A DNA stretch of 64,000 nucleotides, from contig JBFJXR010000002.1 in assembly GCA_041622995.1 (NCBI GenBank), positions 68,084 through 132,083 on the forward strand. The letters are read 5' to 3'. This stretch comes from Nevskiales bacterium (GTDB taxonomy: Bacteria > Pseudomonadota > Gammaproteobacteria > Nevskiales > CAJXLF01). Below are positions 1,955 through 31,360 of this stretch, piece after piece. A program made the translations under genes and the position numbers. How positions within the stretch are numbered: the stretch's first letter is position 1; every line of letters starts with the position of its first letter. The notes under the pieces are model-generated. The model searched no databases. It saw only the letters and a list, made by a program, of their open reading frames with translations, and was not told the origin of the DNA.

Positions 1955-4900
1955 ATGACTTTTATTTCTTATGCACAGAATTATGAAGACGTAACACTTT
2001 GGCGTGCGTTGAAGCATGTCAAAAATGGCACTTATATTGATGTGGGTGCGCAACATCCTGAGGAGTGTTCAGTAACAAAAGCGTTTTACGATTCTGGTTG
2101 GACCGGTATAAATGTAGAGCCAGTAAAGCAGTGGTTTAAACTTATAAAGGAGAGCAGGCCTAAAGACATAAATTTAAATATTGCCTTAGCAGATAAAGTT
2201 GAAGCTAAAAGAACTTTATTTGAAGTTGAAGGCACAGGCATGTCAACGTGCAATCGTAAATACGCAGATATGCACGAAAAAGATGGTTTTAAAGTCAAAA
2301 AAATATTAGTGCCTACCTCAACTTTATCCGAATTGTGCGAAAAGTATATCTCGGATGAAATTCATTTCCTGAAAATAGACGTAGAAGGCGCTGAGAAAGC
2401 AGTGCTCGAAGGAGCGGACTTCTCAAAGTATCGACCATGGGTGATTTTAATTGAAGCAACTGAACCAAATAGCCCAATTAGTGCACATAAAAATTGGGAA
2501 GATATTTTGCTTAAGAATAATTATAAATTCGTATGGTTTGATGGGTTGAATCGCTTTTATGTGTCTGGCGAAAAAAGAAAAGAATTGGCGAAGCTGATTG
2601 CGCAGCCGCCCAACATTTACGATGAATTTACGCCTAATACCCAAAATGTCTATTTAAAAAATATAAAAGAATTAACTAATAAAATCGAAAGTCTTTCATG
2701 TGAGCTTACCGCACTTGAAAGCCAGAAAATTAGTATTTCAGATGAATTAGAATTGACCCACCAAACAAGTCATAGACTGTTATTAGAAAAGCAGCAGCTC
2801 GAGGCTGATTTATCCCAAGTTAATACTGTGCTTAATAACTATATTGCACTTTGGGAAAATTCTCAGAATGAAGTTAAAGGGCTTTATGAAACGAGAGGGG
2901 AATTAAGTACTCATATTTCTTACCTCGAAAATGAAAAAAATGAATTGATTAGAAAAACTAAAAAAACTGCAATTGAAATTTCGCAATTAGTAGAAAATTT
3001 AGAGGTTGCAAAGAATGAGGGGGATAAAGCTAAGTTGAAATGCGAGGAACTGAGTTCGCAGCTTTCAATATTAGAAGGTCAGCATTCTGAGTTAATACAG
3101 CAAAATAATTTAAATCGACAGCATATTGAGTACATAGACCCAAAGTATTCTTTATTGGAAGATGAGCATGTAAGGCAAGTTGCACAAGAGCAACTCTATA
3201 AAAGACATATTGCTTATATCGAAGCCAAACTATTAAAAATTGAAAATAGCAGTTCCTGGAAGTTAGTTAAGCCGTTCAGAGCAGGGAAACGTCGTTATAG
3301 AAAGGACACTAAGAAAATACGTAAGGCGCTGAAAAGGTTTTATGTAAAAGTATTCAGGCCGTTAAGTAAAAACGATGGTGTGAAGAGGACTGAATTTAAA
3401 GTAATTGATCGAGGAAATCTGAATCTGCCGAACACTGATACGGATTCGATACAATACGCGTTATCCGTAGGGCAAAGAATTATTTACTACTATGTGGATC
3501 ACACTTTAGATTGCCCGGTTAATACAGGTGTACAACGAGTAACGCGTAATCTGGCAACTAAGTTGATCGATAGTGGTGAGAAAATAGTATTTGTGAAGTG
3601 GGATGCGGAACTTAATAAAATAATTCTTCTAAATAGAAATGACCTAGATAATCTTGAAAAATGGCAAGGTCCTAAACTTGGATTTGAAGATAAAGCAATA
3701 TATCCGGCTAAAGGTGAAAAAGTAGAGATATCACAAGAGCATATTTATGACGAGGGACATTGGCTTTTAGTGCCAGAAGTACCATTCATAACCTTTCATC
3801 CTGAGCCGGTAACTTTAAACTTAATATTGGCTGCTAAGGTAGCAGGGCTACGCTCGGCATTTGTTTTTTACGATGCTATACCTCTTAAACGCCCAGAGTT
3901 TGTTGATATCGCTCCTGTTCACGAGGAGTATATGCAGCACTTGCTCCTGGCCGACCTTATCTTTCCAATTTCTGACTTTTCAGCAAACGACCTCCATGCG
4001 TTCTTTAAATATAGACTGGGAGCCGATAATTCGTCAGTTCCAAAGATAAAAAGTATACGGCTACCCGCGGAATCATTGTTTGCTAAAAGAGTAAGTGAGC
4101 CACTTCCTAAGCGGGAAAAGTTGATTCTATCTGTAGGCACTCTGGATAGACGTAAAAATCAACTCGCACTGGTTAGAGCCTTTTTGCATTGCATGGATAA
4201 AGGACCAGATATGGGTTGGAAACTCATATTGGTTGGGAGTGTTCATGATGATATTAAGGATGAATTGCATAACCTTATAAAGGACAACAAAGCAATAGAA
4301 CTGCGCAAAGATGTGGGAGATGATGAGTTAGAGAATCTGTATGAAGATTGTTCATTTACCGTCTTCCCTTCTGTTGAAGAGGGTTTTGGATTGCCAATTC
4401 TTGAAAGTCTTTGGCATGGCAAACCTTGTATTTGTGCAAGCTTTGGCGCAATGGCTGAAGTCGCAGTGGGTGGGGGTTGTATTCAGGTTGACGTTAATAA
4501 TGAAAGTAAAATTGCAAACGCCGTGGGACAATTGATTAATAATCCTAAGAAGCTTGAAAAGCTTTCTATAGAAGCAGTAGAAAGGCAGCTTTCAAGTTGG
4601 GCTGACTATGCTAAAGAGGTGTCTCAGCTGCTTGATACCACTTCTGATGCACGCTCCAGGATTGGAACAATATATTATTTGGTGGAGCATACTTTTAGTT
4701 TTGCTCATAACACAGGGATTCAACGTGTAGTAAGGAGTTTGGCTAAAGGATTGCTTGAATCTGGTTACCAATTACAAGCTGTTAAATGGAATAGCGAAAC
4801 TGGTAAATTCTATTCGCCGACTATAGATGAGTTATCCCATTTATCAAAGTGGAATGGTCCTGATGTAAACCTCTGGAAAATCGGTGAGCTGCCAGAAAGA

Positions 4901-6943
4901 TTTTCAATAAAAGATTGGCTTTTGATACCAGAGCTTACGGTTTATTCTGGAGCACATGATCTTAAGAAGCTTAAGGCCTCTACAGATGAAGTAGGGCTTC
5001 GAGTCGCATGGATATTTTATGATGCGATTCCATGGAAAATGTCTGATATTTATCCCCAACACTGGGGCGATGCTCACGCAGAATACATGAGGGCATTGAA
5101 TACTTTTGATCTGGTTCTGGCAATTTCACGACACAGCAGAAATGATCTGAAGGAATACTTGAAAACTACCGGTTGTAGAATGCCAGAAGTTGATCGCAGA
5201 ATCCTTGCTTGTCAGCTTCCAGGCGAATTTTCACACATTAAAAGAATTACTGAAGTTAAAAATGATGTTGATGACAAGGTTAGAATATTGTGCGTAGGAT
5301 CTGTGGAGTTAAGGAAAAACCAGACCACATTAATAAACGCATTTGACTTGGTTAACAAGAGCACGAAAAAAAATATTGAATTAGTAATAGCAGGTGGGTG
5401 TTACCTTCCAGAAGAATATATACAACCATTTAGGGATCTCGTGTCATCGACTGCCGGAGTGACTTGGATCGAATCCCCTGATGACAAGCAACTAAGTGAG
5501 TTATATGAATGTAGTGATTTTAGCGTTTATCCGTCCGTTGAAGAAGGTTTTGGTTTGCCAATTCTTGAGAGTCTTTGGCATTGTCGTCCTTCAATTTGTC
5601 ATAACAAAGGGGCAATGGCAGAAGTAGCAGAAGGTGGTGGATGTCTCACTGCGGACGTCACTGACGTTGACGCACTAGCAGAAGCTATTTCGACTCTAGT
5701 TGACAATAAAAGTAAAAGACTGGAACTTGCAAAGCATGCCAGCAAGATGACATTCCGTAGTTGGAAAGAGTATGCGAACGATGTCGTCTATAGGATGACC
5801 AATTCTGCTGTATTTAAAGTACCCAATAATGATCTGACCAACGTTTCTCTACCTGCTACAGCTTCTGCATTCAGCAAGAAATTTATCAATACTGATCAAA
5901 TGCCATTGTTGTCAATTTGCATATCTACATATAACCGTGCTCCTTGGTTGAAAGTAAGCTTGAGAAACTTGGAAAGGCTAATAGGTGAGGGCGAAGATGG
6001 TATTGAAGTAGTTGTTTGTGACAATGCCTCAACTGACAACACTTCTGAAATTGTAAAGCCTTACCTGTCACGTAAGGATTTTCATTACCATAGAAATAAA
6101 GTCAATGTTGGAATGTTGGGTAATTTAAGTGTTACAGCAAATAAAGCCAGAGGTAAATATGTCTGGATTCTCGGAGATGATGATTTGGTTTTACCAGGTG
6201 CTATCGAAAGGATTTTGCACACAATTAAGAGAAACAAAGACTTAGCACTCGTATATTTGAATTATTCGTATACACGAGAAGATGCGCCAGATTCTGTCGA
6301 GAACCTGGATAGCTTTCTACAAAAAGGAATTCCAATAGTTGCACCAGAGGAAGATTTCTATGGGTCAGTTGCTGAATGTTCAGTTAGATCAGAAAACTTC
6401 TTCACGGCAATATATTGTTTGGTATTTAGGCGAGATCACGCGATAAAAGCCTATTCGCAGAATACGGATGGACGACCATTCAGCACTATGCTTACCTGTA
6501 TACCAACAACTTATCACGTACTTAATGAAATGATGGACTTGCCTGCTGCTTGGATAGGTGAGCCGCAAGTTGTTATTAATATGAATGTTTCCTGGCTTAA
6601 ATATGCGTCTCTTTGGATATTGGAGAGATTCCCGGAAGTTTATGATCGAGCTGAGATTATGGGCGCAGACCCCAAGAGTGTGGATAAATGGCGAATAAAT
6701 TACATACCTCACATAAAAGACCAGTTTGCAGGAATATTTGAGAATGACCCTGAAGAAAACGCTATTTACTTCAATCCAAAAAAACTGGTTACAAGATATA
6801 AGCACCTTGAGGAATTCAGAGCGGAGTTTCCTTATTTAATAGATATATATAAGCGTGCCCATCAGGCTGGAAAGATAGGGGCGGAACTTCCTGTCTCACA
6901 AGTATTTCCCGCACTCAACGTTGAATCCAGAAGCGAGGGTTAA
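1955..6943 (+). CDS. Multidomain polysaccharide assembly protein. Approximate domain spans: FkbM-type methyltransferase 1955-2600, coiled coil 2650-3245, GT4 module 1 3470-4650, GT4 module 2 4655-5800, GT2 domain 5897-6600, followed by a C-terminal extension.
   Basis: 1662-aa ORF. The N-terminus (QNYEDV...YIDVGA...FLKIDVEGAEKAVL) is FkbM-like. About 200 aa are heptad-rich and Glu/Leu/Gln/Asn-rich (KNIKELTNKIESLSCELTALESQK...EAKLLKIENSSSW). Two GT4 cores each carry EEGFGLPILESLWH. The GT2 signature is LSICISTYNR...VCDNASTDNT...LGDDD. Confidence 0.85.
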   Translation: MTFISYAQNYEDVTLWRALKHVKNGTYIDVGAQHPEECSVTKAFYDSGWTGINVEPVKQWFKLIKESRPKDINLNIALADKVEAKRTLFEVEGTGMSTCNRKYADMHEKDGFKVKKILVPTSTLSELCEKYISDEIHFLKIDVEGAEKAVLEGADFSKYRPWVILIEATEPNSPISAHKNWEDILLKNNYKFVWFDGLNRFYVSGEKRKELAKLIAQPPNIYDEFTPNTQNVYLKNIKELTNKIESLSCELTALESQKISISDELELTHQTSHRLLLEKQQLEADLSQVNTVLNNYIALWENSQNEVKGLYETRGELSTHISYLENEKNELIRKTKKTAIEISQLVENLEVAKNEGDKAKLKCEELSSQLSILEGQHSELIQQNNLNRQHIEYIDPKYSLLEDEHVRQVAQEQLYKRHIAYIEAKLLKIENSSSWKLVKPFRAGKRRYRKDTKKIRKALKRFYVKVFRPLSKNDGVKRTEFKVIDRGNLNLPNTDTDSIQYALSVGQRIIYYYVDHTLDCPVNTGVQRVTRNLATKLIDSGEKIVFVKWDAELNKIILLNRNDLDNLEKWQGPKLGFEDKAIYPAKGEKVEISQEHIYDEGHWLLVPEVPFITFHPEPVTLNLILAAKVAGLRSAFVFYDAIPLKRPEFVDIAPVHEEYMQHLLLADLIFPISDFSANDLHAFFKYRLGADNSSVPKIKSIRLPAESLFAKRVSEPLPKREKLILSVGTLDRRKNQLALVRAFLHCMDKGPDMGWKLILVGSVHDDIKDELHNLIKDNKAIELRKDVGDDELENLYEDCSFTVFPSVEEGFGLPILESLWHGKPCICASFGAMAEVAVGGGCIQVDVNNESKIANAVGQLINNPKKLEKLSIEAVERQLSSWADYAKEVSQLLDTTSDARSRIGTIYYLVEHTFSFAHNTGIQRVVRSLAKGLLESGYQLQAVKWNSETGKFYSPTIDELSHLSKWNGPDVNLWKIGELPERFSIKDWLLIPELTVYSGAHDLKKLKASTDEVGLRVAWIFYDAIPWKMSDIYPQHWGDAHAEYMRALNTFDLVLAISRHSRNDLKEYLKTTGCRMPEVDRRILACQLPGEFSHIKRITEVKNDVDDKVRILCVGSVELRKNQTTLINAFDLVNKSTKKNIELVIAGGCYLPEEYIQPFRDLVSSTAGVTWIESPDDKQLSELYECSDFSVYPSVEEGFGLPILESLWHCRPSICHNKGAMAEVAEGGGCLTADVTDVDALAEAISTLVDNKSKRLELAKHASKMTFRSWKEYANDVVYRMTNSAVFKVPNNDLTNVSLPATASAFSKKFINTDQMPLLSICISTYNRAPWLKVSLRNLERLIGEGEDGIEVVVCDNASTDNTSEIVKPYLSRKDFHYHRNKVNVGMLGNLSVTANKARGKYVWILGDDDLVLPGAIERILHTIKRNKDLALVYLNYSYTREDAPDSVENLDSFLQKGIPIVAPEEDFYGSVAECSVRSENFFTAIYCLVFRRDHAIKAYSQNTDGRPFSTMLTCIPTTYHVLNEMMDLPAAWIGEPQVVINMNVSWLKYASLWILERFPEVYDRAEIMGADPKSVDKWRINYIPHIKDQFAGIFENDPEENAIYFNPKKLVTRYKHLEEFRAEFPYLIDIYKRAHQAGKIGAELPVSQVFPALNVESRSEG

Positions 6944-11592: not shown

Positions 11593-12777
11593 CTATCTCT
11601 GAGAATGTTCACGTAAGCCAGTCATTAATAATCGGGAAATTGAATACATCAGAAATAGACTCATAAAAATGATGCAGATAGATTTGAATTTTTGAGGGTA
11701 TTTGGCTTCATCTGGAACGTTGGGTTCAACTACTCGATCGAGATAAATTAATTGTCTCCGGGCTTCCGCTTTGGCGGAAGCTAACGATCCGACCGCAGAT
11801 GCCAGCTGCTTCGCTGCAAACTCCTGGCGCAGGACTAATTCTTCGTACATCCCAACTTTTGGCGCAAGTGATTTTTCATCGCCAGTGAGTTTAGCCATTT
11901 CATTATTATATTGACGTTCTATAGAGTTTATGTGAGCTTTTAAACCCCGTATCATCGGATTAGATGGAGAGGACTGCTGCATTTCACTCAAACGAGCCCG
12001 GCTCATGATCAGTTCTACTCGAAGTTTTGCCAATGATTCGGCAAATGCTTCTGTGGCTGATTTGGGGTCGAGCACCTCTTCCCTGTTTCTATAATTCAGC
12101 ATTTTTAACTGAATCTCTGTAACTTTCTCTTCTGCAATTTGAACGTCTTTTTCAGCATCGCCTATTGCATTATTTCTGGATCTTTCATTTAGCCTGTTAA
12201 CAAGCCCCTCACTCTCGTCAAGTAAAATATTTACAATCAATTGTGCGTCATCGGGAGAGAAGGCCCTTGCCGTTAAAGTTGTAATGCCCGTGGCTGAATC
12301 AAATACTATGGATATATTTTTCGAATAATATTCATATAAACCTTCAAATGAATTATCGTTAAGAATATTTGGATATTGCGAGAGAAAGTCAGCATCCTTG
12401 TTGCCATAAATATTTTTTAAATCAATGTGTTTCTGTAATGATTTAATGCCGTCTCGAGAAGTAATGAATTCATGAACAATAAAGAGACTGTCATGAGTTG
12501 GCGAAAGGCCTGCTTGCTGAAAAAAATTGGCGAACATGCTCATCTGTCGCTGCTGTGAACTGCGAACAATAAACCGGCCTTCAGACTCGTACATGTCAGT
12601 GGCAATAAAAGAATAATAAATTATGGCAAGTAGTGTGGGCAGTATTAAGAACAGGATTGCCCCAGAATTTTCGGTAATTGCTTTTAATAATGCGTTAGGC
12701 CGCTTTGGTTTTGCGGGTACAATCGTGTGAACTTCTAGGTTTTCTGTCGTCTGAATATCTATAGTATCTGTGTTCAC
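11593..12777 (-). CDS. kpsE: Capsule polysaccharide export inner-membrane protein (KpsE/CtrB/BexC, PCP-3 family)
   Basis: 394 aa. An N-terminal TM segment (ILFLILPTLLAIIYY), a long periplasmic coiled region and a C-terminal hydrophobic helix. Located upstream of kpsM-kpsT. Confidence 0.85.
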   Translation of the reverse strand: MNTDTIDIQTTENLEVHTIVPAKPKRPNALLKAITENSGAILFLILPTLLAIIYYSFIATDMYESEGRFIVRSSQQRQMSMFANFFQQAGLSPTHDSLFIVHEFITSRDGIKSLQKHIDLKNIYGNKDADFLSQYPNILNDNSFEGLYEYYSKNISIVFDSATGITTLTARAFSPDDAQLIVNILLDESEGLVNRLNERSRNNAIGDAEKDVQIAEEKVTEIQLKMLNYRNREEVLDPKSATEAFAESLAKLRVELIMSRARLSEMQQSSPSNPMIRGLKAHINSIERQYNNEMAKLTGDEKSLAPKVGMYEELVLRQEFAAKQLASAVGSLASAKAEARRQLIYLDRVVEPNVPDEAKYPQKFKSICIIFMSLFLMYSISRLLMTGLREHSQR

Positions 12778-12985: not shown

Positions 12986-14293
12986 TTGATGGCAAACAAT
13001 AAACCAATTATATTTTTTGACGCTAGTCGGCTATTCAATCGTTTGCTTTCATCTACACCAGCTGGAATTGATCGTGTGGATTTGGCATATGCAAAAAAAT
13101 TCTTGCATGATCAAGAATACACAGTGGCATATATTGTTTATGGGAAAAAAGGACACTTTATATTTCCCAGATTAATAGTCATATTATTTTTGTGGGTTGC
13201 AGAATTCTCTTCAAGAAACCGGGATGCCAAGTTTAGTAGTAGGGTTGCCTTTCCACTAGTAACATCACTCGTTGCTTATTTCCTTCGCCCAAGTAATTTT
13301 CTCTGGATACTTAAGTTTTTTAGATGGATGAGTGTATTGGGTCTGCCACGTCATCCCGAAAGCATCATTTCAAAATCTACTCTCGTTGCGGTCTATATTA
13401 ATGTTTCTCACGGAAAGTTAACAAAATACAGGCGCTTTTCCTGGTTAAAAGATAATAATGTATCGGGTGTTTTTTTTGTACATGACCTGATTCCAATACT
13501 AAATCCAGAGTTTTGTACTGATAAGCAGGCTGAGAGACACCGTGCCCGTTTGGAAATGATTTCTCAGCATGCCGATTTGATTATTTCAATATCTGAAAAC
13601 ACAAAAGAAGAATTAGTGAGATATTTTTCGAAGGAAAAACTGTCATTGCCTGAAATTCAAGTGCTTCCACTTGCAGTTGATGGTATTTGTCATGCAAATG
13701 AAGTGAAGCCGGTAATTGAAAATCCAACTACGTATTTTGTAATTTTATCTACTATTGAGCCTCGAAAAAATCACCTAATGTTGCTGAAAATCTGGAAAAG
13801 GTTGGTTAAGGATTTTGGGCTTGCAGCGCCAAAATTAGTAATCATTGGTCGACGCGGGTGGAAGAATGACAAGGTATTCAGGTTGTTGGAGGATAAGGAG
13901 CTAGAGCCATATGTACATGAATACAATGACCTATCCGACGGCCAGGTTAAAAGTCTTTTGCTGGGTTCAAGGGCACTGATCTCGCCTTCTTTTGTTGAAG
14001 GATACGGGCTTCCTGTTGTTGAGGCATTAAGCTTAAAAGTGCCGGTTATCGCATCTGATATTCCTTCGCATCGTGAAATAGGAAAATCTGTTCCAGATTT
14101 CATTGATCCATATGATGCAGAATCTTGGTACGCTCATATCGTAGCTTATACAGATTCTGAGAATACGATGAGGGCTTCTCAACTGGAGCGCATGAGTGAT
14201 TTCAGCATCATAAGTTGGAAGGAGCATATGCTGACATTTGATAAGCTCTTGAAAGAACTTGTAGTCAAAAAATCAGTAGTTTCTAAAGCATGA
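12986..14293 (+). CDS. Glycosyltransferase family 4 (GT-B, retaining type)
   Basis: 435 aa. The C-terminal half has EPRKNH, GRRGW and SFVEGYGLPVVEALSLKVPVIASDIPSHREI (the EX7E region). The N-terminal half contains hydrophobic stretches. The start is either TTG at 12986 or ATG at 12989. Confidence 0.8.
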   Translation: MMANNKPIIFFDASRLFNRLLSSTPAGIDRVDLAYAKKFLHDQEYTVAYIVYGKKGHFIFPRLIVILFLWVAEFSSRNRDAKFSSRVAFPLVTSLVAYFLRPSNFLWILKFFRWMSVLGLPRHPESIISKSTLVAVYINVSHGKLTKYRRFSWLKDNNVSGVFFVHDLIPILNPEFCTDKQAERHRARLEMISQHADLIISISENTKEELVRYFSKEKLSLPEIQVLPLAVDGICHANEVKPVIENPTTYFVILSTIEPRKNHLMLLKIWKRLVKDFGLAAPKLVIIGRRGWKNDKVFRLLEDKELEPYVHEYNDLSDGQVKSLLLGSRALISPSFVEGYGLPVVEALSLKVPVIASDIPSHREIGKSVPDFIDPYDAESWYAHIVAYTDSENTMRASQLERMSDFSIISWKEHMLTFDKLLKELVVKKSVVSKA

Positions 14294-15186
14294 AAAGCCT
14301 GACGCCGGAAATCAGGGCAGAGTTAGAGGCTGTTATTGGTAATATTCAGCAGGTTACACTTTTGCACAAACGCTGGATTCGACGTCGCGAATCCTACAGA
14401 CCAGTGTCTAAAAGATCTCCCAAGGTTTACTTGTTGTCGTCAGAGTCTGGTGTGCGGTATAAATTATTGATCGGTAATGAGGGCGGCAGTCGTATCAGCC
14501 GAATCAGGCATTATTCAGAACAATGTGCTGGTTTCTCATTCTTCCCTGAGTTGGCTTCAAGCGGTGATGACTGGTTACTGATTGAATATATTGAAGGAAG
14601 TGAGCCCGATTTTTCTTCGAAAGGCTTTGCCTATGATATAGGCATCTCACTTGCACAAATGCATCTCCTAAATAGGAGGCCATGTGATGCTTCTAAGATT
14701 CAAGAGCATTTGCGAAAGGATATCCATCAGCTTCAAAAATACGGGCACCTGACTACTAATAAAGATGTGGCTCTTGTATGGAACGTTTTTGAGAGGCTGA
14801 ATTTGGGAGTCTGTCCCACCAGCCTGGATTATTTTGATGTCAAGCCGAGCAACTTTATACGCGCCACCAATGGACAGATATATTTTGTCGACCTGGGTGC
14901 GATAGGAGAAAACTGGCCTACGGGCCAATTTCTATTCGGTAGCTTGCATTACGATAAACTGAAAATGAGGTCGTTTGCTGAAGGATACCTTTCAGGTGGT
15001 GGAGATCAGGCTATATTAGATCGTGGCTTACCGTTCAGGGTTCTTCACTGCTTATGGTTGGCTGCACACTATTACAGAAGGGCTGCTGAAATACCGTTCT
15101 ACGTAGCACCGATGAAATATGGTTTTCAGATAATGGGTAGAAGACTGATTAATAAAAGTCTTCACCTTGCTTCGGATTGTATGTAG
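14290..15186 (+). CDS. Eukaryotic-protein-kinase-like kinase, candidate glycan (chain-end) kinase
   Basis: 298 aa. Hinge LIEYIEGSEP. Catalytic loop FDVKPSNFI (D-x-K-P-x-N, nt 14836-14853). DFG-equivalent FVDLG (nt 14890-14898). A lysine candidate lies in VRYKLLIG. The start overlaps the GT4 stop (ATGA). Confidence 0.65.
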   Translation: MKSLTPEIRAELEAVIGNIQQVTLLHKRWIRRRESYRPVSKRSPKVYLLSSESGVRYKLLIGNEGGSRISRIRHYSEQCAGFSFFPELASSGDDWLLIEYIEGSEPDFSSKGFAYDIGISLAQMHLLNRRPCDASKIQEHLRKDIHQLQKYGHLTTNKDVALVWNVFERLNLGVCPTSLDYFDVKPSNFIRATNGQIYFVDLGAIGENWPTGQFLFGSLHYDKLKMRSFAEGYLSGGGDQAILDRGLPFRVLHCLWLAAHYYRRAAEIPFYVAPMKYGFQIMGRRLINKSLHLASDCM

Positions 15187-23742: not shown

Positions 23743-24654
23743 TTAACTGGGTTGACTATTTTCACTTAAACATCGGGCCAAAGCCGTTTTCCAGTCGAGA
23801 GGCTGCTTGCTCCAAGCCAACTCTGCTTTAGAGTTATTTAGTGTAGATCGTTTGGGACGCTTGGCTGGTGTTGGGAATGACTCGGTCGTTATTGGCTCGA
23901 GTTTTGGTGCCATGTTCAATATTCCGTTTTTTACACTTAATTGGAATATCTCCTTGGCAAAGTCGTGCCATGTTGTTTCCCCGTCACAGGTTAGATGGTA
24001 AATGCCTGATTCAGGGGCGCGACCATTAATAATCCTGTCAATAAGTTTCGTGGTCTCTTCTGCGATGTGCTCTGCGGTGGTTGGGCTGCCATATTGATCA
24101 TCAACAACACTCAAGCTGTCCCGTTCACGTGCAAGTCGAAGCATGGTGTTCAGGAAATTCTTGCCTTTTGCGTCGTAGACCCAGCTGGTTCGCAAGATAT
24201 AGTGCTGGCAGCCCGAGTTCATTATTTCATTTTCACCCGCTAATTTGGTTTGTCCATAAATATTGATAGGACAGGGTGGGTCATCTTCGGTATAGGCAGA
24301 ATGTTTACTGCCATCAAAAACATAGTCCGTAGAATAATGAATAAAGGGAATATTTAGTCTGGCGCAGGTCATAGCGATTACAGACGGCGCTTTTGCATTA
24401 ATCAATTCGGCCAAATCAGGCTCGGACTCGGCCTTATCTACCGCCGTGTAAGCTGCAGCGTTGACTACAATATCGGGCTTGATGTTTTCTATTATCGACT
24501 GAAGTTTATCGGGTAAGCCAAGGTCGCCTGAGGGTGAGGAATGACGGGTAAGCGCGGTAATATTTGCTTTGTCTTTTAGTGCTTTAACCAGTGCACTTCC
24601 CACCTGTCCATTCGCGCCAAATACAAGAACTGCAGGTTTTTCCTTTTGAGACAT
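23743..24654 (-). CDS. rfbD: dTDP-4-dehydrorhamnose reductase
   Basis: 303 aa. VFGANGQVGSAL and YGQTKLAGE. It is the last gene of the rmlBADC block. Confidence 0.92.
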   Translation of the reverse strand: MSQKEKPAVLVFGANGQVGSALVKALKDKANITALTRHSSPSGDLGLPDKLQSIIENIKPDIVVNAAAYTAVDKAESEPDLAELINAKAPSVIAMTCARLNIPFIHYSTDYVFDGSKHSAYTEDDPPCPINIYGQTKLAGENEIMNSGCQHYILRTSWVYDAKGKNFLNTMLRLARERDSLSVVDDQYGSPTTAEHIAEETTKLIDRIINGRAPESGIYHLTCDGETTWHDFAKEIFQLSVKNGILNMAPKLEPITTESFPTPAKRPKRSTLNNSKAELAWSKQPLDWKTALARCLSENSQPS

Positions 24655-24657
24655 AGG

Positions 24658-25224
24658 TTAGATCTTGTACTGAGGCAGTTGATCTGCAGGCACATCCTTC
24701 AGGAAAGGTGTATGCGAATCCTTCTCCGAAATGGAGGCTTCTTCAATGGGCCACTGAATTCCCAGCTCAGGGTCATCCCAGCGAATGCCCGTGTCGCCTG
24801 CCGGGTTGTAGTAGTCAGTACATTTATAACAGAACAGGGCTTCTTTACTCGTCACGCAGAAGCCGTGTGCAAATCCAGGAGGGATATAGAGTTGATTGCC
24901 TGCTTCTGATGAAAGTGTAACACCCACCCATTGTCCGAATGCAGGTGAACCGTAACGAATATCTACGGCCACATCATAGACTTGCCCAATCGGGCAGTAG
25001 ACCAGTTTCCCCTGGGGGTTGGGTAATTGAAAATGCAGACCTCTTAATACGCCTTGCTGGGAAAAAGACATATTGTCCTGTACAAAACTTTCAGCCAATC
25101 CTGCTTCGTTGTAGTTCAATTCACGCCAGGTTTCCACGAAATAGCCACGGCTATCTCCGAATTTTCTCGGCCGAATCATTAAGACACCCGGTAATGAGGT
25201 TTCAGTGACCTCCATATCAGTCAA
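24658..25224 (-). CDS. rfbC: dTDP-4-dehydrorhamnose 3,5-epimerase
   Basis: 188 aa. [21 protein letters not shown] and PPGFAHGF. Confidence 0.95.
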
Positions 25225-26086
25225 CCTTGATCAGGTTATACAGGTACTCACCGTATTGATTCTTTTTCAGGTTGTCGGCCATCTTCAGTACATCCTCATC
25301 GCTGATCCATTTCTTTCGCCAGGCGATTTCTTCGAGGCAGCCTATTTTTAGGCCTTGCCTGCGTTCCAGGGTTTCGATGAATGTGGCGGCTTCAAGCAGG
25401 GAGTCATGTGTTCCTGTATCCAGCCAGGCGGAACCGCGGCCTAGTAAAGTGACTGATAGTTTGCCGTTATTGAGATAACGCCTGTTTACGTCAGTAATTT
25501 CCAACTCGCCGCGAGGTGAAGGCTGGATGTTTTTTGCTATCTCTACGACATCATTGTCGTAAAAGTACAGGCCGGTGACTGCATAATTGGAAGGGGGTTT
25601 GACCGGTTTTTCGATGATCTCTGTGACCGTGCCATTTTCATCGAAGTCAATGACACCGTAACGCTCCGGATCTCTGACACGATAGGCGAAAATATGGGCG
25701 CCATGGCTAAGTTCTGCACCATTCTCAAGCTGTCGGGCTAACTCATAGCCATAAAAGAGGTTATCGCCTAAAACAAGAGAGCAGGCATCGTTGCCGATAA
25801 ATTCCTCGCCGATAATGAATGCCTGGGCAAGGCCATCAGGCGAGGGCTGTACAGCGTAGCTCAGATTGATGCCCCACTGGTTGCCATCGCCAAGTGTGGT
25901 CTGAAAACGCGGGGTGTCTTGCGGTGTGGATATGATGAGCATATCGCGTATTCCAGCGAGCATTAAAGTGCTGATCGGGTAAAAAATCATGGGTTTGTCA
26001 TAAACGGGTAAAAGTTGTTTTGAGACGCCCAGAGTGAGGGGGTAGAGTCGAGTGCCGCTACCACCTGCGAGAATTATCCCTTTCAT
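25217..26086 (-). CDS. rfbA: Glucose-1-phosphate thymidylyltransferase
   Basis: 289 aa. [18 protein letters not shown]...[16 protein letters not shown]-type N-terminus. Confidence 0.96.
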
Positions 26087-27147
26087 GCTGTTTCCTTTGT
26101 GCCCAGTCCGAGCCTTTGCCCCTGTTGGTGACTTTCCTGAATATTTTCATTCCATTCGGGGTTGCTTAAGTACCAATCCACCGTTTTCGCAATACCGGTT
26201 TCAAAAGATTCCTCGGGAACCCACCCTAAATCATCTGCAATTTTACTGGCATCAATAGCATATCGCCTGTCATGACCGGGGCGGTCATCCACATAAGTGA
26301 TCTGATCTGCATACACCCCGTTATCCTTGGGTAGCTTTTGATCAAGGCAGGCGCATATTGTCTGCACAACTTCCAGATTGGTTTTTTCGTTATGTCCGCC
26401 GATATTGTAGGTCTCACCGACTTTTGCCTCGGTCAGTACTTTTAGCAGGGCTTTGGCATGATCATCCACAAAGAGCCAATCCCTGATTTGCAGGCCGTCA
26501 CCATAAATAGGCAGAGGCTTATCTGTCAGTGCATTCATAATCATCAGTGGAATCAGCTTTTCCGGAAATTGATAAGGCCCGTAATTATTTGAACAATTGG
26601 ATACAAGAACCGGGAGACCATAGGTGTTTTCCCAGGCTCGTACCAGATGATCGGATCCAGCCTTGCTTGATGAATAGGGTGATCTTGGGTCGTAAGGAGT
26701 ATCCTCGGTGAACAAGCCTGTATTGCCCAGACTTCCGTATACCTCATCCGTGGAAATATGATGAAAACGAAATTCAGACTTTTCTGTTTCAGGCAATCCA
26801 GACCAGTATTCACGGCTAACTTCAAGCAGATTAGCGGTGCCCATGATATTGGTTTGCAAGAAAACCATCGGGCCATCAATTGACCGGTCAACATGCGATT
26901 CAGCGGCAAGGTGCATAATGGCATCCGGGGCGAATTCCTCGAAGGCAGAGGTCATAGCCTGTGTGTCACAAATATCCGCTTGTAGAAAATCATAACTTGG
27001 TGAATCGGAAATCCCGCCCAATGTGGCCAGATTTCCGGCGTAGGTAAGTTTGTCCACATTCAGAACCTGATGTTCTGTATGAGTAATGATGTGTCTTATA
27101 ACTGCCGAGCCAATGAAGCCAGCGCCGCCCGTAACAATAATTTTCAT
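26083..27147 (-). CDS. rfbB: dTDP-glucose 4,6-dehydratase
   Basis: 354 aa. [19 protein letters not shown], and [17 protein letters not shown]. Confidence 0.96.
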
Positions 27148-27215: not shown

Positions 27216-29156
27216 TTACTGGGTGATCACTATATGGCGATTAATACTGGAGTTTTCAATTGTGGTCTCTGAGCCATCTGGCCATCGGACATGCACGTCG
27301 GCTGTGGCTGCATCCTCAAGGCCAAAGTGCACTTCTGTAGGATTTTGTGAGAGGTAATTGTTGCCTGCTTTAATTTCCCTCATCTGTCTGCCTTCAGGGG
27401 TAGTGACATATATTCGTGCACCAATCGCATCTGTATTGGGCGCCTTACCCTTCAATTTGATACTGAGATAGTGCTTTTGATTCCCTGATTCATTTCTGTA
27501 TGCACGGGCTGGCTGGTTGTTGTTGGCTATGAAAATATCAACGTCGCCATCGCGATCATAATCAAAGCAACTTATGCCGCGACCCTGTCGGTCATCATTG
27601 ATACCGGCTTCGACTGCGTATTCAGTGAATGTGCCGTTTTTATTTGATATAAACAGGCGAGATAGATCCTTGCCATATTCCGAGCCTGAAAGGTTTGTGG
27701 CGAAACCGTTCACATGGAAAATGTCGAGCCATCCATCATTATTGAAATCTGCGAAACAACTTCCCCAACCCCAGGAGCCATCGCGTACGCCAGATTCAGC
27801 AGTGGCATCAGTAACCCCGCAACCGTTATCGTTTTTGTAGAGACGATTACCCGATGTGCCCCAGTTTTCAGGTGATTGTACTTTTCCGTCGGGATCAAGA
27901 ATGCTGGATACGAACCAGTCCAGATCGCCATCATTGTCGTAGTCTTCTACCGCTGCACCCATGCCGTTTTCATCTGAGATGACATCCGGCGTGACATCGA
28001 CAAAGGTGCCGTTTCTGGCATTTAGGAGTATCTGGCTTGTTCCGAAGTCGGATGCGATCAACAAGTCAGGCCAGCCATCGTTATTTACATCTGCGAAATT
28101 CGGGGTAAAAGTAAAGTCCGTGCTGTTTTCATCTCCGGCAATATTCGAAACCTGAGGATAGGTTGCAGATATCCCGCTGGGTACACTTGTATCGGTAAAT
28201 GTGCCATTGCCTTCATTGCGCCATAAGTGTTGGGTGGATACGTCTTTAGTGACCTCAGAACCCCAGTGCGCCAGAAACAGATCCAGGTCACCATCACGGT
28301 CATAATCTGCGGCACTGGCGGATAGTGACAGGTTTCGATCGGTGAACAGGGCAGAGGATGTGGTGACGTTCTGGAAGCTGCCATCGCCCTTATTGCGGAA
28401 TAATTGGCTGGAATACCCGTTGATGGCATTAACGAGCAGATCGAGATGGCCATCCCCATCATAGTCAAAGAACAGGGGGGCAGCCGAGCAACCATTAGCG
28501 GGGTCTTCAGGCGGCAAGCCAACACCGGCAGGATCTGCGACATCTGTAAATGTGCCATCGCCATTGTTTCTGTATAAGCGATTGATTGAGCGATTGCCGG
28601 TGGGGAAGTAGAGGTCTACGTCTCCATCGGAATCATAATCGCCTGCCGCCACACCTGCGACCATGTGCTCGTAACCCGTGCGGCAGGTAGCACTTTGGTC
28701 AAAAGAGTGGCCATGGAAAATTCCGGTAGATTCTGTTGCGTCTGTGAATTGCACATTGTTTACTGGCGCCGACGTATCGGGGTCATCTTCTCCCGTTGAC
28801 GTTGGCGGTGTATCGACGTTTTCCGGGTGTTCAGGAATTGGGCTGCCATCTGTATCCGATCCGCCAGAATCTTCTGGGGGTGGCTCCTGAGGTGGGTCTT
28901 CCACTGGGGATCCCCCATCTGTCCCGCCATCTGTATCAACAGTGCTTGCAACGAAAGTAGAGCCGGTGAGTGTTATATCACCGAATTTATTCACACATTC
29001 GCCAGTTTGTTCATTCAAATTGGGCGCGCCTTGTTCAACTGTTGAAAGTGTAACATCGTCGCTTCCGCCACCACCTGGGCATCCACTGAGGGTAAATGAC
29101 AGTATGACAACAACGGAACTCACTCTGATTTTGCGCATGACTATTTTCTGCTTCAT
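27216..29156 (-). CDS. CRTAC1-family FG-GAP/VCBS-repeat lipoprotein with a C-terminal ASPIC/UnbV domain
   Basis: Lipobox FTLSGC, followed by an acidic Pro/Asp/Gly-rich linker. Repeated DYDxDGDxDL FG-GAP Ca-binding motifs occur at least 6 times. The C-terminus HYLSIKLKG...NTDAIGARIYV...AGNNYLSQNPTEVHFGL is UnbV_ASPIC-like. The start codon is uncertain; the ORF extends to 29192 and internal Met codons at 29156 and 29138 give better signal peptides. Confidence 0.8.
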   Translation of the reverse strand: MKQKIVMRKIRVSSVVVILSFTLSGCPGGGGSDDVTLSTVEQGAPNLNEQTGECVNKFGDITLTGSTFVASTVDTDGGTDGGSPVEDPPQEPPPEDSGGSDTDGSPIPEHPENVDTPPTSTGEDDPDTSAPVNNVQFTDATESTGIFHGHSFDQSATCRTGYEHMVAGVAAGDYDSDGDVDLYFPTGNRSINRLYRNNGDGTFTDVADPAGVGLPPEDPANGCSAAPLFFDYDGDGHLDLLVNAINGYSSQLFRNKGDGSFQNVTTSSALFTDRNLSLSASAADYDRDGDLDLFLAHWGSEVTKDVSTQHLWRNEGNGTFTDTSVPSGISATYPQVSNIAGDENSTDFTFTPNFADVNNDGWPDLLIASDFGTSQILLNARNGTFVDVTPDVISDENGMGAAVEDYDNDGDLDWFVSSILDPDGKVQSPENWGTSGNRLYKNDNGCGVTDATAESGVRDGSWGWGSCFADFNNDGWLDIFHVNGFATNLSGSEYGKDLSRLFISNKNGTFTEYAVEAGINDDRQGRGISCFDYDRDGDVDIFIANNNQPARAYRNESGNQKHYLSIKLKGKAPNTDAIGARIYVTTPEGRQMREIKAGNNYLSQNPTEVHFGLEDAATADVHVRWPDGSETTIENSSINRHIVITQ

Positions 29157-29300
29157 TTCTGACGTTAAAACTATTGTCTGAGCATAGCGCAATATGCCAA
29201 TTGTGGGTCGCGAATTTATAGGGATGCAATTTTAATCTGTTAGGCTACACTACAAGGGTATTTACAAGCCAAGAACCGACCTTAGGTCAGAGAGGGTAGT

Positions 29301-29807
29301 ATGCGTCAATCTCAATTTATACTGGCAAGTCAGAGGAAAAGGATTTCAAAATTCAGTCTGATGGTTCTGGGGGCGTTCATGACCTGCAATGCTGGTACTG
29401 CTCTCTCAGATGAAAACGCAATTCCTGCTTTGATCTCGATAGACGGGAATTCATTGCAAACATCTTCCTATGTACATGACGCTGTTGTTACTGTTTCTCA
29501 TCCCGGTGGCTCAGTCAGCGAGCACAGCATTCGAGGTGGCGAATCGCTCGGGCTGCATAATTTGGCATCAAATAAGAAGCATGCGAAATCAAGATGGGGG
29601 GCGGGCGGTTCCAGTCTGGAAGATGGTGTTTATAAGTATGAATTGACTAGCCTGCCGGATTATTTGCACACAAGAACAGCAGAAGAATTTGAAAGCAATC
29701 AATATGAAAATGTCTCAGCAGTAACTGATACAGTTTCCGGTTCTTTTCGTGTTCTCAATGGTCAGGTCGTTTCTGATCAGCTTGTTGAACCTGAAGCCTT
29801 TGAGTAG
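29301..29807 (+). CDS. Hypothetical secreted protein
   Basis: 168 aa with an N-terminal signal-like hydrophobic segment (FSLMVLGAFMTCNAGTALS). I recognise no family. It lies 9 nt upstream of the tail-fibre-like gene, so it is probably co-transcribed. Confidence 0.5.
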   Translation: MRQSQFILASQRKRISKFSLMVLGAFMTCNAGTALSDENAIPALISIDGNSLQTSSYVHDAVVTVSHPGGSVSEHSIRGGESLGLHNLASNKKHAKSRWGAGGSSLEDGVYKYELTSLPDYLHTRTAEEFESNQYENVSAVTDTVSGSFRVLNGQVVSDQLVEPEAFE

Positions 29808-29816
29808 GGGTGCATT

Positions 29817-31217
29817 ATGAATATCAATAAATACGTTACTTCTCATAAGAGGCAGGCATTCATTTTTTGTGCATCAGCTTCAATTATTCTTTACGCAACA
29901 CTCGCACGTGCCGATCAGGTGATTCTGGATGATTTGATTGTTGATGGCAGTATTTGCGTAGGTCTGGACTGCGTCAATGGTGAAAGCTTTGGTTTTGATA
30001 CCCTGCGCTTAAAGGAAAATAATCTTCGCATTAAATTTCAGGACACCTCCACTTCTGCAAGCTTTCCTACAAATGACTGGCAGATCACAGCTAATGACTC
30101 TTCCAATGGAGGCGCAAATAAATTTTCAATAGATGATATTGATGGAGGCCGTACCCCATTTACTTTGGAGGCAGGCGCGCCCAGCCATTCTTTGTATGTG
30201 GATGATGGAGGAAGGCTTGGTCTGGGCACGTCAACGCCAGTTGTTGATGTGCATGTTAAATCAGGCAATACGCCTACATTACGTCTGGAGCAGGATGGCA
30301 CTTCCGGGTTTTCGCCTCAAACCTGGGATGTGGCTGGAAACGAAGCGAATTTCTTTATCAGGGATACGACTAACGGTTCAAAATTGCCATTCAGGTTATT
30401 TCCAAATGCGCCTTCAAATGCTTTGACAATTGAAGGCGTGACTGGTGATATTGGACTGGGGACTACATCACCGGATAGCGTGCTTCATTTACGACGGACA
30501 AATGTAAATGAACCTAAGATAAAAGTTCATAATGCTGGTGGATTGGGAGGAGCTTCAATTGACCTGGTAAATGATTTTTCAGGTGACGCTTGGAAAATAA
30601 CGTCCAAGGAACAGGGGGGGTTTAAAATTCGGGATGATGCTAATAGCTTTGATGCTTTGGTGATTAATCGGGCTGAAGTAGCTGGTCAAAATAGACCATT
30701 TGTAGGTTTTAATGTTGAGCCACCCGTTCAGGCAATTGATACTTGGACAGGAGCGCAACTAACGATTGGTGGTGTGTGGACAAACGCTTCTGATGTCGCA
30801 TTAAAACAGGGATTTGAGAATGTCGATGCAAGAATTATCCTGGCAACTGTCAGTGAACTTCCAATAAGCAGTTGGAGCTATAAGAGCGAGGACTCAAGCA
30901 TTAAGCATATTGGCCCAACCGCGCAGGATTTTCACGCGGCCTTTGGATTAGGTGCCAGTTCAAAGAATATAGGTACAGTAGATGCTGATGGCATTGCCCT
31001 ACTTTCTATCCAAGCATTACATGACCTTGTGAAATCTCTCGAAGCGGCGAATGCATCTCTTCGTGAGGATCAAGCAAAAATGGATGAGCGAAATAGACTA
31101 TTAGAGGCTAAGGTTTCAGAAATGGAGCGAAGTAATGCCAAGCTGGCTGGTTTGCAAATCTCAGCCTCTGAGATAATGCGTCGACTGGAAAGTCTTGAAG
31201 CTTTAAGTTCGGAGTAG
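29817..31217 (+). CDS. Tail-fibre-domain protein with a C-terminal peptidase-S74 intramolecular chaperone domain and a terminal coiled coil
   Basis: 466 aa. N-terminal signal/anchor. Conserved N-domain LDDLIVDGSICVGLDCVNGESFGFDTLRLKENNLRIKFQDTS...NDWQITAND. S74 motif S-D-V-A-L-K (nt 30789-30806), then LPISSWSYK...KHIGPTAQDFHAAFGLG...VDADGIALLSIQAL, and a heptad-rich tail. Confidence 0.8.
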   Translation: MNINKYVTSHKRQAFIFCASASIILYATLARADQVILDDLIVDGSICVGLDCVNGESFGFDTLRLKENNLRIKFQDTSTSASFPTNDWQITANDSSNGGANKFSIDDIDGGRTPFTLEAGAPSHSLYVDDGGRLGLGTSTPVVDVHVKSGNTPTLRLEQDGTSGFSPQTWDVAGNEANFFIRDTTNGSKLPFRLFPNAPSNALTIEGVTGDIGLGTTSPDSVLHLRRTNVNEPKIKVHNAGGLGGASIDLVNDFSGDAWKITSKEQGGFKIRDDANSFDALVINRAEVAGQNRPFVGFNVEPPVQAIDTWTGAQLTIGGVWTNASDVALKQGFENVDARIILATVSELPISSWSYKSEDSSIKHIGPTAQDFHAAFGLGASSKNIGTVDADGIALLSIQALHDLVKSLEAANASLREDQAKMDERNRLLEAKVSEMERSNAKLAGLQISASEIMRRLESLEALSSE

Positions 31218-31283: not shown

Positions 31284-31360
31284 TGGTAGGCGCGATTGGA
31301 CTCGAACCAACGACCCCCACCATGTCAAGGTGGTGCTCTAACCAGCTGAGCTACGCGCCT
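31284..31360 (-). tRNA. tRNA-Val (anticodon GAC)
   Basis: The reverse complement AGGCGCGTAGCTCAGCTGGTTAGAGCACCACCTTGACATGGTGGGGGTCGTTGGTTCGAGTCCAATCGCGCCTACCA folds as a cloverleaf. The anticodon loop is TTGACAT and CCA is encoded. Confidence 0.95.

Follow-up and report, generated by a model that had tools for sequence, protein, structure and literature searches.

The fibre gene and its partners

The 64,000-nt stretch of DNA of a Nevskiales bacterium analysed here (contig JBFJXR010000002.1; hereafter the window) carries a cassette of three genes, which centres on a gene for a fibre-like protein of 466 aa with a Peptidase_S74 domain (29817–31217, forward strand; hereafter the fibre). It is preceded on the same strand by a gene for a putatively exported partner protein of 168 aa with an FN3/Ig-like beta-sandwich domain (p168; 29301–29807), recognised by a profile match described below, and both are divergent from a gene on the reverse strand that encodes a CRTAC1-type FG-GAP/ASPIC beta-propeller lipoprotein (27216–29138; gene call and Pfam). 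Protein features were scored with Pfam gathering cut-offs on called genes, and tRNA genes with ARAGORN. An initial annotation had already placed these three open reading frames (ORFs) at the same coordinates, which we could confirm. The stop codon of p168 and the start codon of the fibre gene are 9 nt apart, and each gene is preceded by a Shine-Dalgarno-like sequence, which for p168 can be read directly as GAGAGGG immediately 5' of its ATG. The divergent intergenic region (29139–29300; direct sequence reading) presumably holds the promoters of both transcription units; consensus scans for promoters and terminators gave counts not above those in shuffled sequences and placed no promoter in this region.

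The fibre starts with a predicted signal peptide (aa 1–32; 29817–29912; sequence features and alignment), which has a basic n-region, a hydrophobic core and an A-x-A motif, with predicted cleavage between A-R-A and D-Q-V. The boundary before 'DQVILDD' is common to all homologues in which the base directly follows the signal peptide (short forms, as in the window), and fused forms have a domain junction at the same point. The conserved base (aa 33–226; 29913–30494) consists of a cap with Cys47 and Cys52 and two tandem modules of ~80 aa (A and B), each terminating in G-x-(L/I)GLGT-x-x-P...H(V/L); the modules are 32% identical (E = 1e-9), which points to a tandem duplication. A hypervariable tip module (aa 227–324; 30495–30788) follows, and then the Peptidase_S74 core (aa 325–387; 30789–30977) and a C-terminal coiled-coil tail of the chaperone (aa 388–466 and the stop codon; 30978–31217). 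In an alignment of 20 sequences across several phyla, mean pairwise identity is 0.80 for the cap and module A (aa 33–146), 0.68 for module B (aa 147–226), 0.16 for the tip (aa 227–318), 0.50 for the S74 region (aa 319–400) and 0.19 for the tail (aa 401–466). Cys47, Cys52, Ser325 and Lys330 are invariant in this alignment, and the tip has zero invariant columns. Among ~250 family proteins the tip of the window fibre was encountered in one other protein only (P0021, 38% identity), and library scans returned no family match for aa 227–324, enzyme families included. The motifs on which the initial annotation had relied, i.e., the N-domain block 'LDDLIVDGSICVGLDCVNGESFGFDTLRLKENNLRI', the repeated GLGT segments (two G-x-(L/I)GLGT motifs, at aa 135–138 and aa 213–216), S-D-x-x-x-K and a Ser at nt 30789, are all present in the 466-aa fibre.

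The search with the S74 model that had been suggested there gave a match of PF13884 to aa 325–376 (E = 1.7e-8; 35 bits vs. a gathering cut-off of 22). The sequence S-D-V-A-L-K occupies aa 325–330, with the TCT codon of Ser325 at nt 30789–30791; the Ser and Lys of the S-D-x-x-x-K motif do not vary in the 20 homologues, although the Asp does. Judged from its sequence, this is a bona fide S74 module with its catalytic dyad, and the fibre may, consequently, be expected to trimerise and to cleave itself, with predicted products of 31.0 kDa (aa 33–324) and 15.3 kDa (aa 325–466). The heptad-rich tail noted initially is also supported, since AlphaFold2 (AF2) models aa 388–465 as a single long helix with a predicted local distance difference test score (pLDDT) of ~88–97, and Leu, Ile, Val and Met fill 55% of the best a/d register vs. 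29% overall. The sequence and length of this tail differ among homologues. A conserved base, a hypervariable tip and a removable C-terminal chaperone together correspond to the layout of a receptor-binding protein, and the tip, presumably bared by S74 cleavage, would be its ligand-binding end.

The C-terminus of the family is mosaic. The family S74 is found in 98 of the 128 complete family ORFs, a more canonical S74 in two and a short cysteine-containing end in one, and ~27 possess another conserved C-terminal module followed by a coiled coil (L007:2223–13934, L011:1789–13192, L055, L076). This replacing module is characterised by the pattern 'PDYVF..DY.L..L.EV..FI..N.HLP.VPSA...EELTLYTL' or 'CDLVF...LNELEKAHIYI' and has no Pfam model and no sequence match in the PDB; hhalign sets it at the position of S74 with a probability of 90%, at 10% identity and without the Ser/Lys dyad. 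It may represent a non-cleaving trimerisation module.

Besides the short forms, the family comprises long forms with an N-terminal extension of 130–290 aa. A profile of 86 such extensions matches p168 with E = 1.8e-17 and 60.6 bits, compared to 9.2 bits for the best of 2,000 shuffles, and p168 and the extensions have the pattern V.VSgPgG...f..Ge...f......G..L.DG.Y.YEL...P......SG.F.v.NG.vV. in common. In at least 21 of the 30 testable short-form loci the fibre gene is immediately preceded by a stand-alone p168 homologue in the same orientation, and three further cases are hidden by overlapping ORF calls. The gaps between the two genes are mostly −50 to +30 nt, so that stop and start codons usually overlap or nearly do so. 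Split forms account for 25 of 26 ORFs in the Alphaproteobacteria and 12 of 20 in the Gammaproteobacteria, fused forms for 46 of 51 in the Acidobacteriota and 5 of 5 in the Chloroflexota. From these comparisons it follows that p168 and the fibre, which in the window each have their own signal peptide, are a fission/fusion ('Rosetta stone') pair, i.e., the split version of a fused gene, and the pairing proposed by the initial annotation is, therefore, well founded in the homology of p168 to the N-terminal domain of fused members.

The p168 domain itself is highly divergent (mean identity 24%), which explains why a word-indexed homology search returned p168 itself only, a false negative that was overturned by the profile searches; exhaustive phmmer searching yielded 5 relatives only. 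No match to p168 was obtained in Pfam, NCBIfam, PHROG or PADLOC. Its AF2 model is a beta-sandwich (pLDDT 75.7), for which Foldseek searches of PDB and BFVD gave FN3/Ig-like folds as the best, not significant, matches (E ~0.07, template modelling score ~0.5; none at E<=0.001). We propose that p168 serves as a base adaptor or anchor subunit.

Cellular distribution and conserved neighbourhood

More than 6,600 fibre homologues were recovered among 8,000 candidates scored, the best being ~50–57% identical over ~90% of the length. Their sources include Rhodobacterales, Shewanella, Kangiellaceae, Acidobacteriota, Chloroflexota and further groups, for the most part sampled in marine and sediment habitats, and a scan of one genome per species revealed at least 538 encoding stretches in many phyla. 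The fibre is, therefore, an 'orphan', as it had been called, only in the sense that it stands without phage context. In some loci as many as 8 paralogues stand in tandem, with a common base but different tips (L007, L011, L045), and a 76-kb Roseovarius plasmid (NZ_CP034347.1; L081) has 9 matching places; in tandem arrays the p168-like gene precedes the first fibre gene only.

The gene neighbourhood was studied in 78 homologous loci with 10-kb flanks, i.e., 79 with the window, for which all neighbouring ORFs were clustered and counted per locus within 10 kb. FG-GAP/ASPIC proteins occur in 39 of the 79 loci, giant proteins with DUF7933 repeats in 26 and either of the two in 49. ASPIC genes are concentrated near the cassette, with a density of 1.70 per 10 kb in the first kb vs. 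0.23 at 8–10 kb, a 7.5-fold decay, and at least 16 of them lie within a gap of <250 nt. The DUF7933 domain is predicted to form intramolecular isopeptide bonds, as is typical of the stalks of adhesins (PMC12617251), and the one giant that was scanned (L022) terminates in an OmpA-like barrel. In the Gammaproteobacteria the recurring order is ASPIC and DUF7933 genes on one strand, p168 and fibre on the other, and polysaccharide genes again on the first; the order in the window is identical minus DUF7933. Independently annotated records of roseobacter plasmids show the succession of a small hypothetical protein, the fibre, a methyltransferase and an 'FG-GAP-like repeat-containing protein'. On the Roseovarius plasmid a sulfotransferase precedes the methyltransferase, and further sulfotransferases and an ABC-transporter permease are nearby; on the Phaeobacter plasmid the FG-GAP gene is succeeded by one for a giant 'Ig-like domain-containing protein', and exopolysaccharide (EPS) export genes adjoin the module. 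The latter plasmid (CP104103.1; L082, 10066–24576) stems from Phaeobacter sp. G2 from an Emiliania huxleyi culture, and there the module directly follows the genes for a Wza-type exporter and for YjbF/YjbH of EPS. The paper on roseobacter biofilm plasmids does not mention the cassette genes, so that their connection with biofilm formation is one of genomic context only.

Two further observations concern these neighbours. A DsbD-N/thioredoxin-like (DUF255) protein is encoded between the DUF7933 and ASPIC genes of a metagenome-assembled genome of Hahella (L048:3953–6133, reverse strand), and its family is a neighbour in 5 loci; this is of interest because the fibre cap has an invariant Cys pair. 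A role in defence was also considered and is unsupported, with PADLOC models matching none of fibre, p168 and ASPIC and no defence model recurring in the loci.

The ASPIC protein of the window measures 640 aa from the called ATG, with the longest ORF extending to 29192 (27216–29192, reverse strand). Its L-S-G-C lipobox is followed by an acidic Pro/Gly/Asp-rich linker of ~110 aa, an FG-GAP propeller with seven D-x-D/N-x-D-G Ca loops and a C-terminal UnbV_ASPIC domain, and Pfam matches are strong (FG-GAP_3, E = 1e-47; UnbV_ASPIC, E = 3e-20; FG-GAP, 2e-14). The divergently transcribed calcium-binding FG-GAP/ASPIC lipoprotein of the initial annotation is, thus, confirmed in its domains, lipobox and Ca loops, and it is in addition a recurrent partner. 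Two size classes of ASPIC neighbours were observed, i.e., ~510–700 aa, to which that of the window belongs, and ~1,000–1,190 aa (L077:11258–14380, L002:3505–6615, L044:13981–16992 and others); the long-class member of L077 has an extra ~500 aa at the N-terminus without Pfam match.

Polysaccharide genes (GT1, Wzt, RmlD, DegT, CapD, sulfotransferase) are present within 10 kb in 30 of the 79 loci, which fits the proposed tie of the fibre to surface glycans. In the window, the dTDP-rhamnose genes rmlB-rmlA-rmlC-rmlD (23743–27147, reverse strand; Pfam assignments of called genes) constitute the near end of a polysaccharide locus of the ABC-transporter-dependent type, which reaches ~nt 700 and includes a Wza-like exporter, Gmd, Wzm/Wzt, ManB/ManC, several methyltransferases and sugar-nucleotide genes. 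We regard this locus as context and do not claim the rml genes as members of the cassette. Its designation as a capsule locus holds as far as polysaccharide is concerned but not for capsule specifically; with ABC-transporter-dependent export and a Wza-like exporter O-antigen is equally possible, and the two are indistinguishable here. Beside Wzm/Wzt the locus encodes a single polypeptide of 1,662 aa (1955–6943, forward strand) that combines an FkbM-type methyltransferase with GT1, GT1 and GT2 domains, an unusually fused polymerase and possible chain terminator of an ABC-transporter-dependent glycan. Two of its other ORFs have no Pfam family at E<=1e-5 (11593–12777, reverse strand, 394 aa; 14290–15186, forward strand, 298 aa). 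The far side of the fibre gene is occupied by tRNA-Val(GAC) (31284–31360, reverse strand; ARAGORN), uvrB and translation genes. The polysaccharide locus and the cassette together (window ~2–32 kb) form a block of lower GC (0.37–0.48 vs. 0.50–0.55 beyond) whose right end is the tRNA-Val gene, and GC at third codon positions (GC3) is 0.35–0.38 for p168 and fibre vs. 0.50–0.58 for the flanking uvrB, thrS and pheT. The block looks island-like.

The low cassette GC3 and the adjoining tRNA gene would also fit a remnant of a prophage, tailocin or gene-transfer agent, i.e., a viral leftover without a cellular role, or a fibre put on particles encoded elsewhere. Homologues in the NCBI database are usually named 'tail fiber domain-containing protein', with virion Gene Ontology terms attached, and PHROG tail-fibre and virion-protein families match the fibre weakly (E = 3e-6 and 6e-6). 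Of the 50,697 GenBank phage records of INPHARED, only those of three distinct cyanophages (two records each) contain a tail fibre that matches the base, with 25–36% identity. These are the Synechococcus phages S-CBP1 (KC310802.1), S-B28 (MK016662.1) and KBS-S-2A (HQ634187.1), with matches mostly to module B, and may mark the viral source lineage of the cellular family. However, the 2.9 million viral contigs of IMG/VR encode no relative at all. No phage structural gene, the finding by which the initial annotation would have given up its cellular reading, was found among the neighbours in the window, and none recurs in the 78 homologous loci, where the genes that do recur are those for cellular surface proteins and for polysaccharides. 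The cleavable Sec signal peptide is, moreover, conserved, while viral fibres assemble in the cytoplasm. A remnant is, therefore, highly improbable. The fibre family is cellular, as initially proposed, with distant tail-fibre ancestry only. Genes named 'tail fiber domain-containing protein' are present in thousands of bacterial genomes, and the present data indicate that a large, coherent subset of them is non-viral and looks like a system of exported fibres that belongs to the cell and has accessory genes of its own.

Proposed function of the fibre

We consider it probable, with moderate confidence, that the p168 and fibre genes make up an operon of two genes whose product is a trimeric adhesive fibre, exported by the Sec pathway and self-processing. 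It would represent a compact version of the mosaic adhesive trimers (MATs) of Bdellovibrio (see below), phage-derived but cell-owned. In this model p168 and the fibre would cross the inner membrane by means of their own signal peptides, after which the S74 chaperone and the coiled coil would bring three fibre chains into register. Once the trimer has folded, Ser325, together with Lys330, would cut and thereby free a chaperone fragment of 15 kDa, leaving a fibre of 31 kDa per chain. The hypervariable tip (aa 227–324) would thus become the new distal end and bind a strain-specific ligand, which is, speculatively, most likely a surface glycan, with the near-invariant base (aa 33–226) as the proximal end. 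As a separate base adaptor p168 may tie the fibre to the envelope, plausibly via the FG-GAP/ASPIC lipoprotein.

The conservation of the base does not follow taxonomy across the homologues and may reflect structural constraint, a conserved socket or horizontal spread. The last is compatible with the data because of the low cassette GC3 and the occurrence on roseobacter replicons.

Polysaccharide genes, counted above within 10 kb in 30 loci, adjoin the cassette directly both in the window and on roseobacter plasmids, and bring into view a secreted depolymerase or modifying enzyme, endosialidase- or tailspike-like, that trims the capsule or O-antigen of the adjacent locus. S74 chaperones are classically found on endosialidases and tailspikes (Pfam description; PMC10769870). 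The region between the base and S74 is, however, only ~100 aa long, hypervariable and without conserved catalytic residues or an enzyme family match. Known depolymerase beta-helices, in contrast, comprise several hundred residues. The closest structural relatives, the MATs, are furthermore binders, not enzymes. Of the functions that the initial annotation had offered for the fibre that of a depolymerase is, therefore, the least likely, and we consider such an enzyme to be quite unlikely.

A number of observations weigh against the adhesive fibre model. No lipobox, sortase signal or beta-barrel was detected in fibre or p168; no secretion system recurs in the loci or lies close to the window cassette, and the neighbouring genes offer no route across the outer membrane, which leaves surface exposure in a diderm unexplained. 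The ASPIC neighbour is missing from half of the loci, and only 7 of 50 ASPIC neighbours have a lipobox-like motif, so that lipid anchoring is not general. With a mean identity so far below the ~80% of the conserved base, p168 cannot be what constrains the latter. Finally, the AF2 model of the fibre monomer is poor (mean pLDDT 57.8) and confident only for the C-terminal helix; because of this low pLDDT it was left out of the fold search.

The same absence of anchoring signals and of a nearby secretion system would be expected if the trimer were shed and cross-linked exopolysaccharide with the ASPIC propeller and DUF7933 in the matrix, or if it stayed periplasmic. The position of the cassette beside EPS export genes on roseobacter plasmids and the spread of the family over lineages with very different envelopes are in line with such a released fibre. 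Yet the exceptionally high conservation of the base is suggestive of docking to a conserved partner, the fused FN3-like domain and the DUF7933 giants anchored by an OmpA barrel point to attachment to the cell, and the related MATs are located on the cell surface. We consider a released or matrix-building fibre, or a periplasmic one, to be a reasonable alternative, though rather unlikely.

If the model of an attached adhesive fibre is correct, the MAT concept would no longer be confined to one predator but include many non-predatory bacteria of different phyla, a first functional context would be available for the bacterial CRTAC1/ASPIC propellers and for a new family of FN3-like domains, and a compact, self-processing scaffold with exchangeable tips would be available for the study and engineering of glycan recognition. 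In roseobacters rhamnose/ABC-exporter polysaccharide loci determine attachment (PMC5030684), and because of the position of the cassette beside such loci a role in surface colonisation can be tested directly. More tentatively, and with low confidence, we suggest that the fibre, the FN3-like adaptor, the ASPIC propeller and, in many genomes, the giant DUF7933 stalk could constitute an undescribed multi-phylum surface apparatus with exchangeable fibres, in which the near-invariant base plugs into a conserved socket, and tips as well as C-terminal modules are exchanged through recombination and tandem duplication. Such an apparatus would provide non-predatory bacteria with a programmable repertoire for the recognition of glycans, surfaces and other cells.

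Comparison with known fibres and related proteins

In a search of the PDB with the fibre profile, the GLGT modules matched the Bdellovibrio proteins Bd2133 (8OND, E = 1.5e-9), Bd1334 (8OML, 0.005) and Bd3182 (8OJN, 0.006), and no phage protein was found at threshold. MATs are trimeric fibres with signal peptides, in which the N-terminal domain is conserved and the tips are mosaic (Caulton et al., 2024; PMC10769870). In B. bacteriovorus 13 of the 21 MATs end in a C-terminal S74, and one of them, Bd3182, cleaves itself at Ser782, a reaction abolished by the substitution S782A; MATs sit on the surface of the predator, and one binds prey glycans (PMC10769870). The statement in the initial annotation that no function has been established for this family, consequently, applies to the fibre subfamily but not to the wider kind, for which the Bdellovibrio fibres have been characterised (PMC10769870).

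The fibre family resembles MATs such as Bd3182 in being chromosomal and non-viral, in a signal peptide directly before a conserved beta-rich N-terminal region, and in modules opening with G-x-(L/V)G(L/I)GT-x-x-P...LHV; the motif ends the base modules of the fibre and starts the beta-helix modules of Bdellovibrio. A variable C-terminal end, an S74 autoprotease with SDxxxK, mosaic C-termini and repertoires of paralogues are also common to both. The profile matches of the GLGT modules, hence, support a MAT-type shaft at the level of sequence, and the fibre family is a likely, though not an established, member of the MAT superfamily. The N-terminal domains that define MATs are not represented in the PDB, and no match was obtained when the Bd2133 fragment was used as search seed. 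There are also clear differences. With 466 aa the window fibre is less than half as long as MATs (~1,000 aa), and in its base the shaft module is tandemly duplicated. It has, in addition, an FN3-like domain dedicated to it, either fused or encoded separately, and ASPIC and DUF7933 genes recur in its surroundings; we found none of these described in the searchable literature, and the main text of the MAT paper (PMC10769870) mentions neither FG-GAP nor operon. Whereas MATs belong to a predator and serve in prey handling, the fibre family occurs in marine and sediment lineages of many phyla. To our knowledge, none of the source lineages named above is a known predator.

With phage S74 proteins, e.g., the K1F endosialidase and the L-shaped tail fibre pb1 of T5, the fibre has the C-terminal chaperone with its Ser-Lys dyad in common, which in these proteins drives trimer folding and then removes itself (PMC10769870). 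It also resembles phage receptor-binding proteins in its conserved proximal and variable distal end. Unlike the phage proteins, however, the window fibre has a Sec signal peptide and lacks a virion context. The best match to the S74 region in the PDB is the ICA domain of MyRF (7DC3, E = 7.6e-5), which takes in the S-D-x-x-x-K region and the strand that precedes the cleavage site; MyRF is a eukaryotic membrane-bound transcription factor, and the chaperone/protease module alone is common to both. For the bacterial members of the CRTAC1/ASPIC group no function was described in the literature searched. The ASPIC protein of the window agrees with the CRTAC1/ASPIC-UnbV proteins in its FG-GAP_3 repeats, C-terminal UnbV_ASPIC domain and Dx[DN]xDG Ca-binding loops, but differs from CRTAC1 in being a bacterial lipoprotein with a long acidic linker and in its genomic coupling to fibre cassettes.

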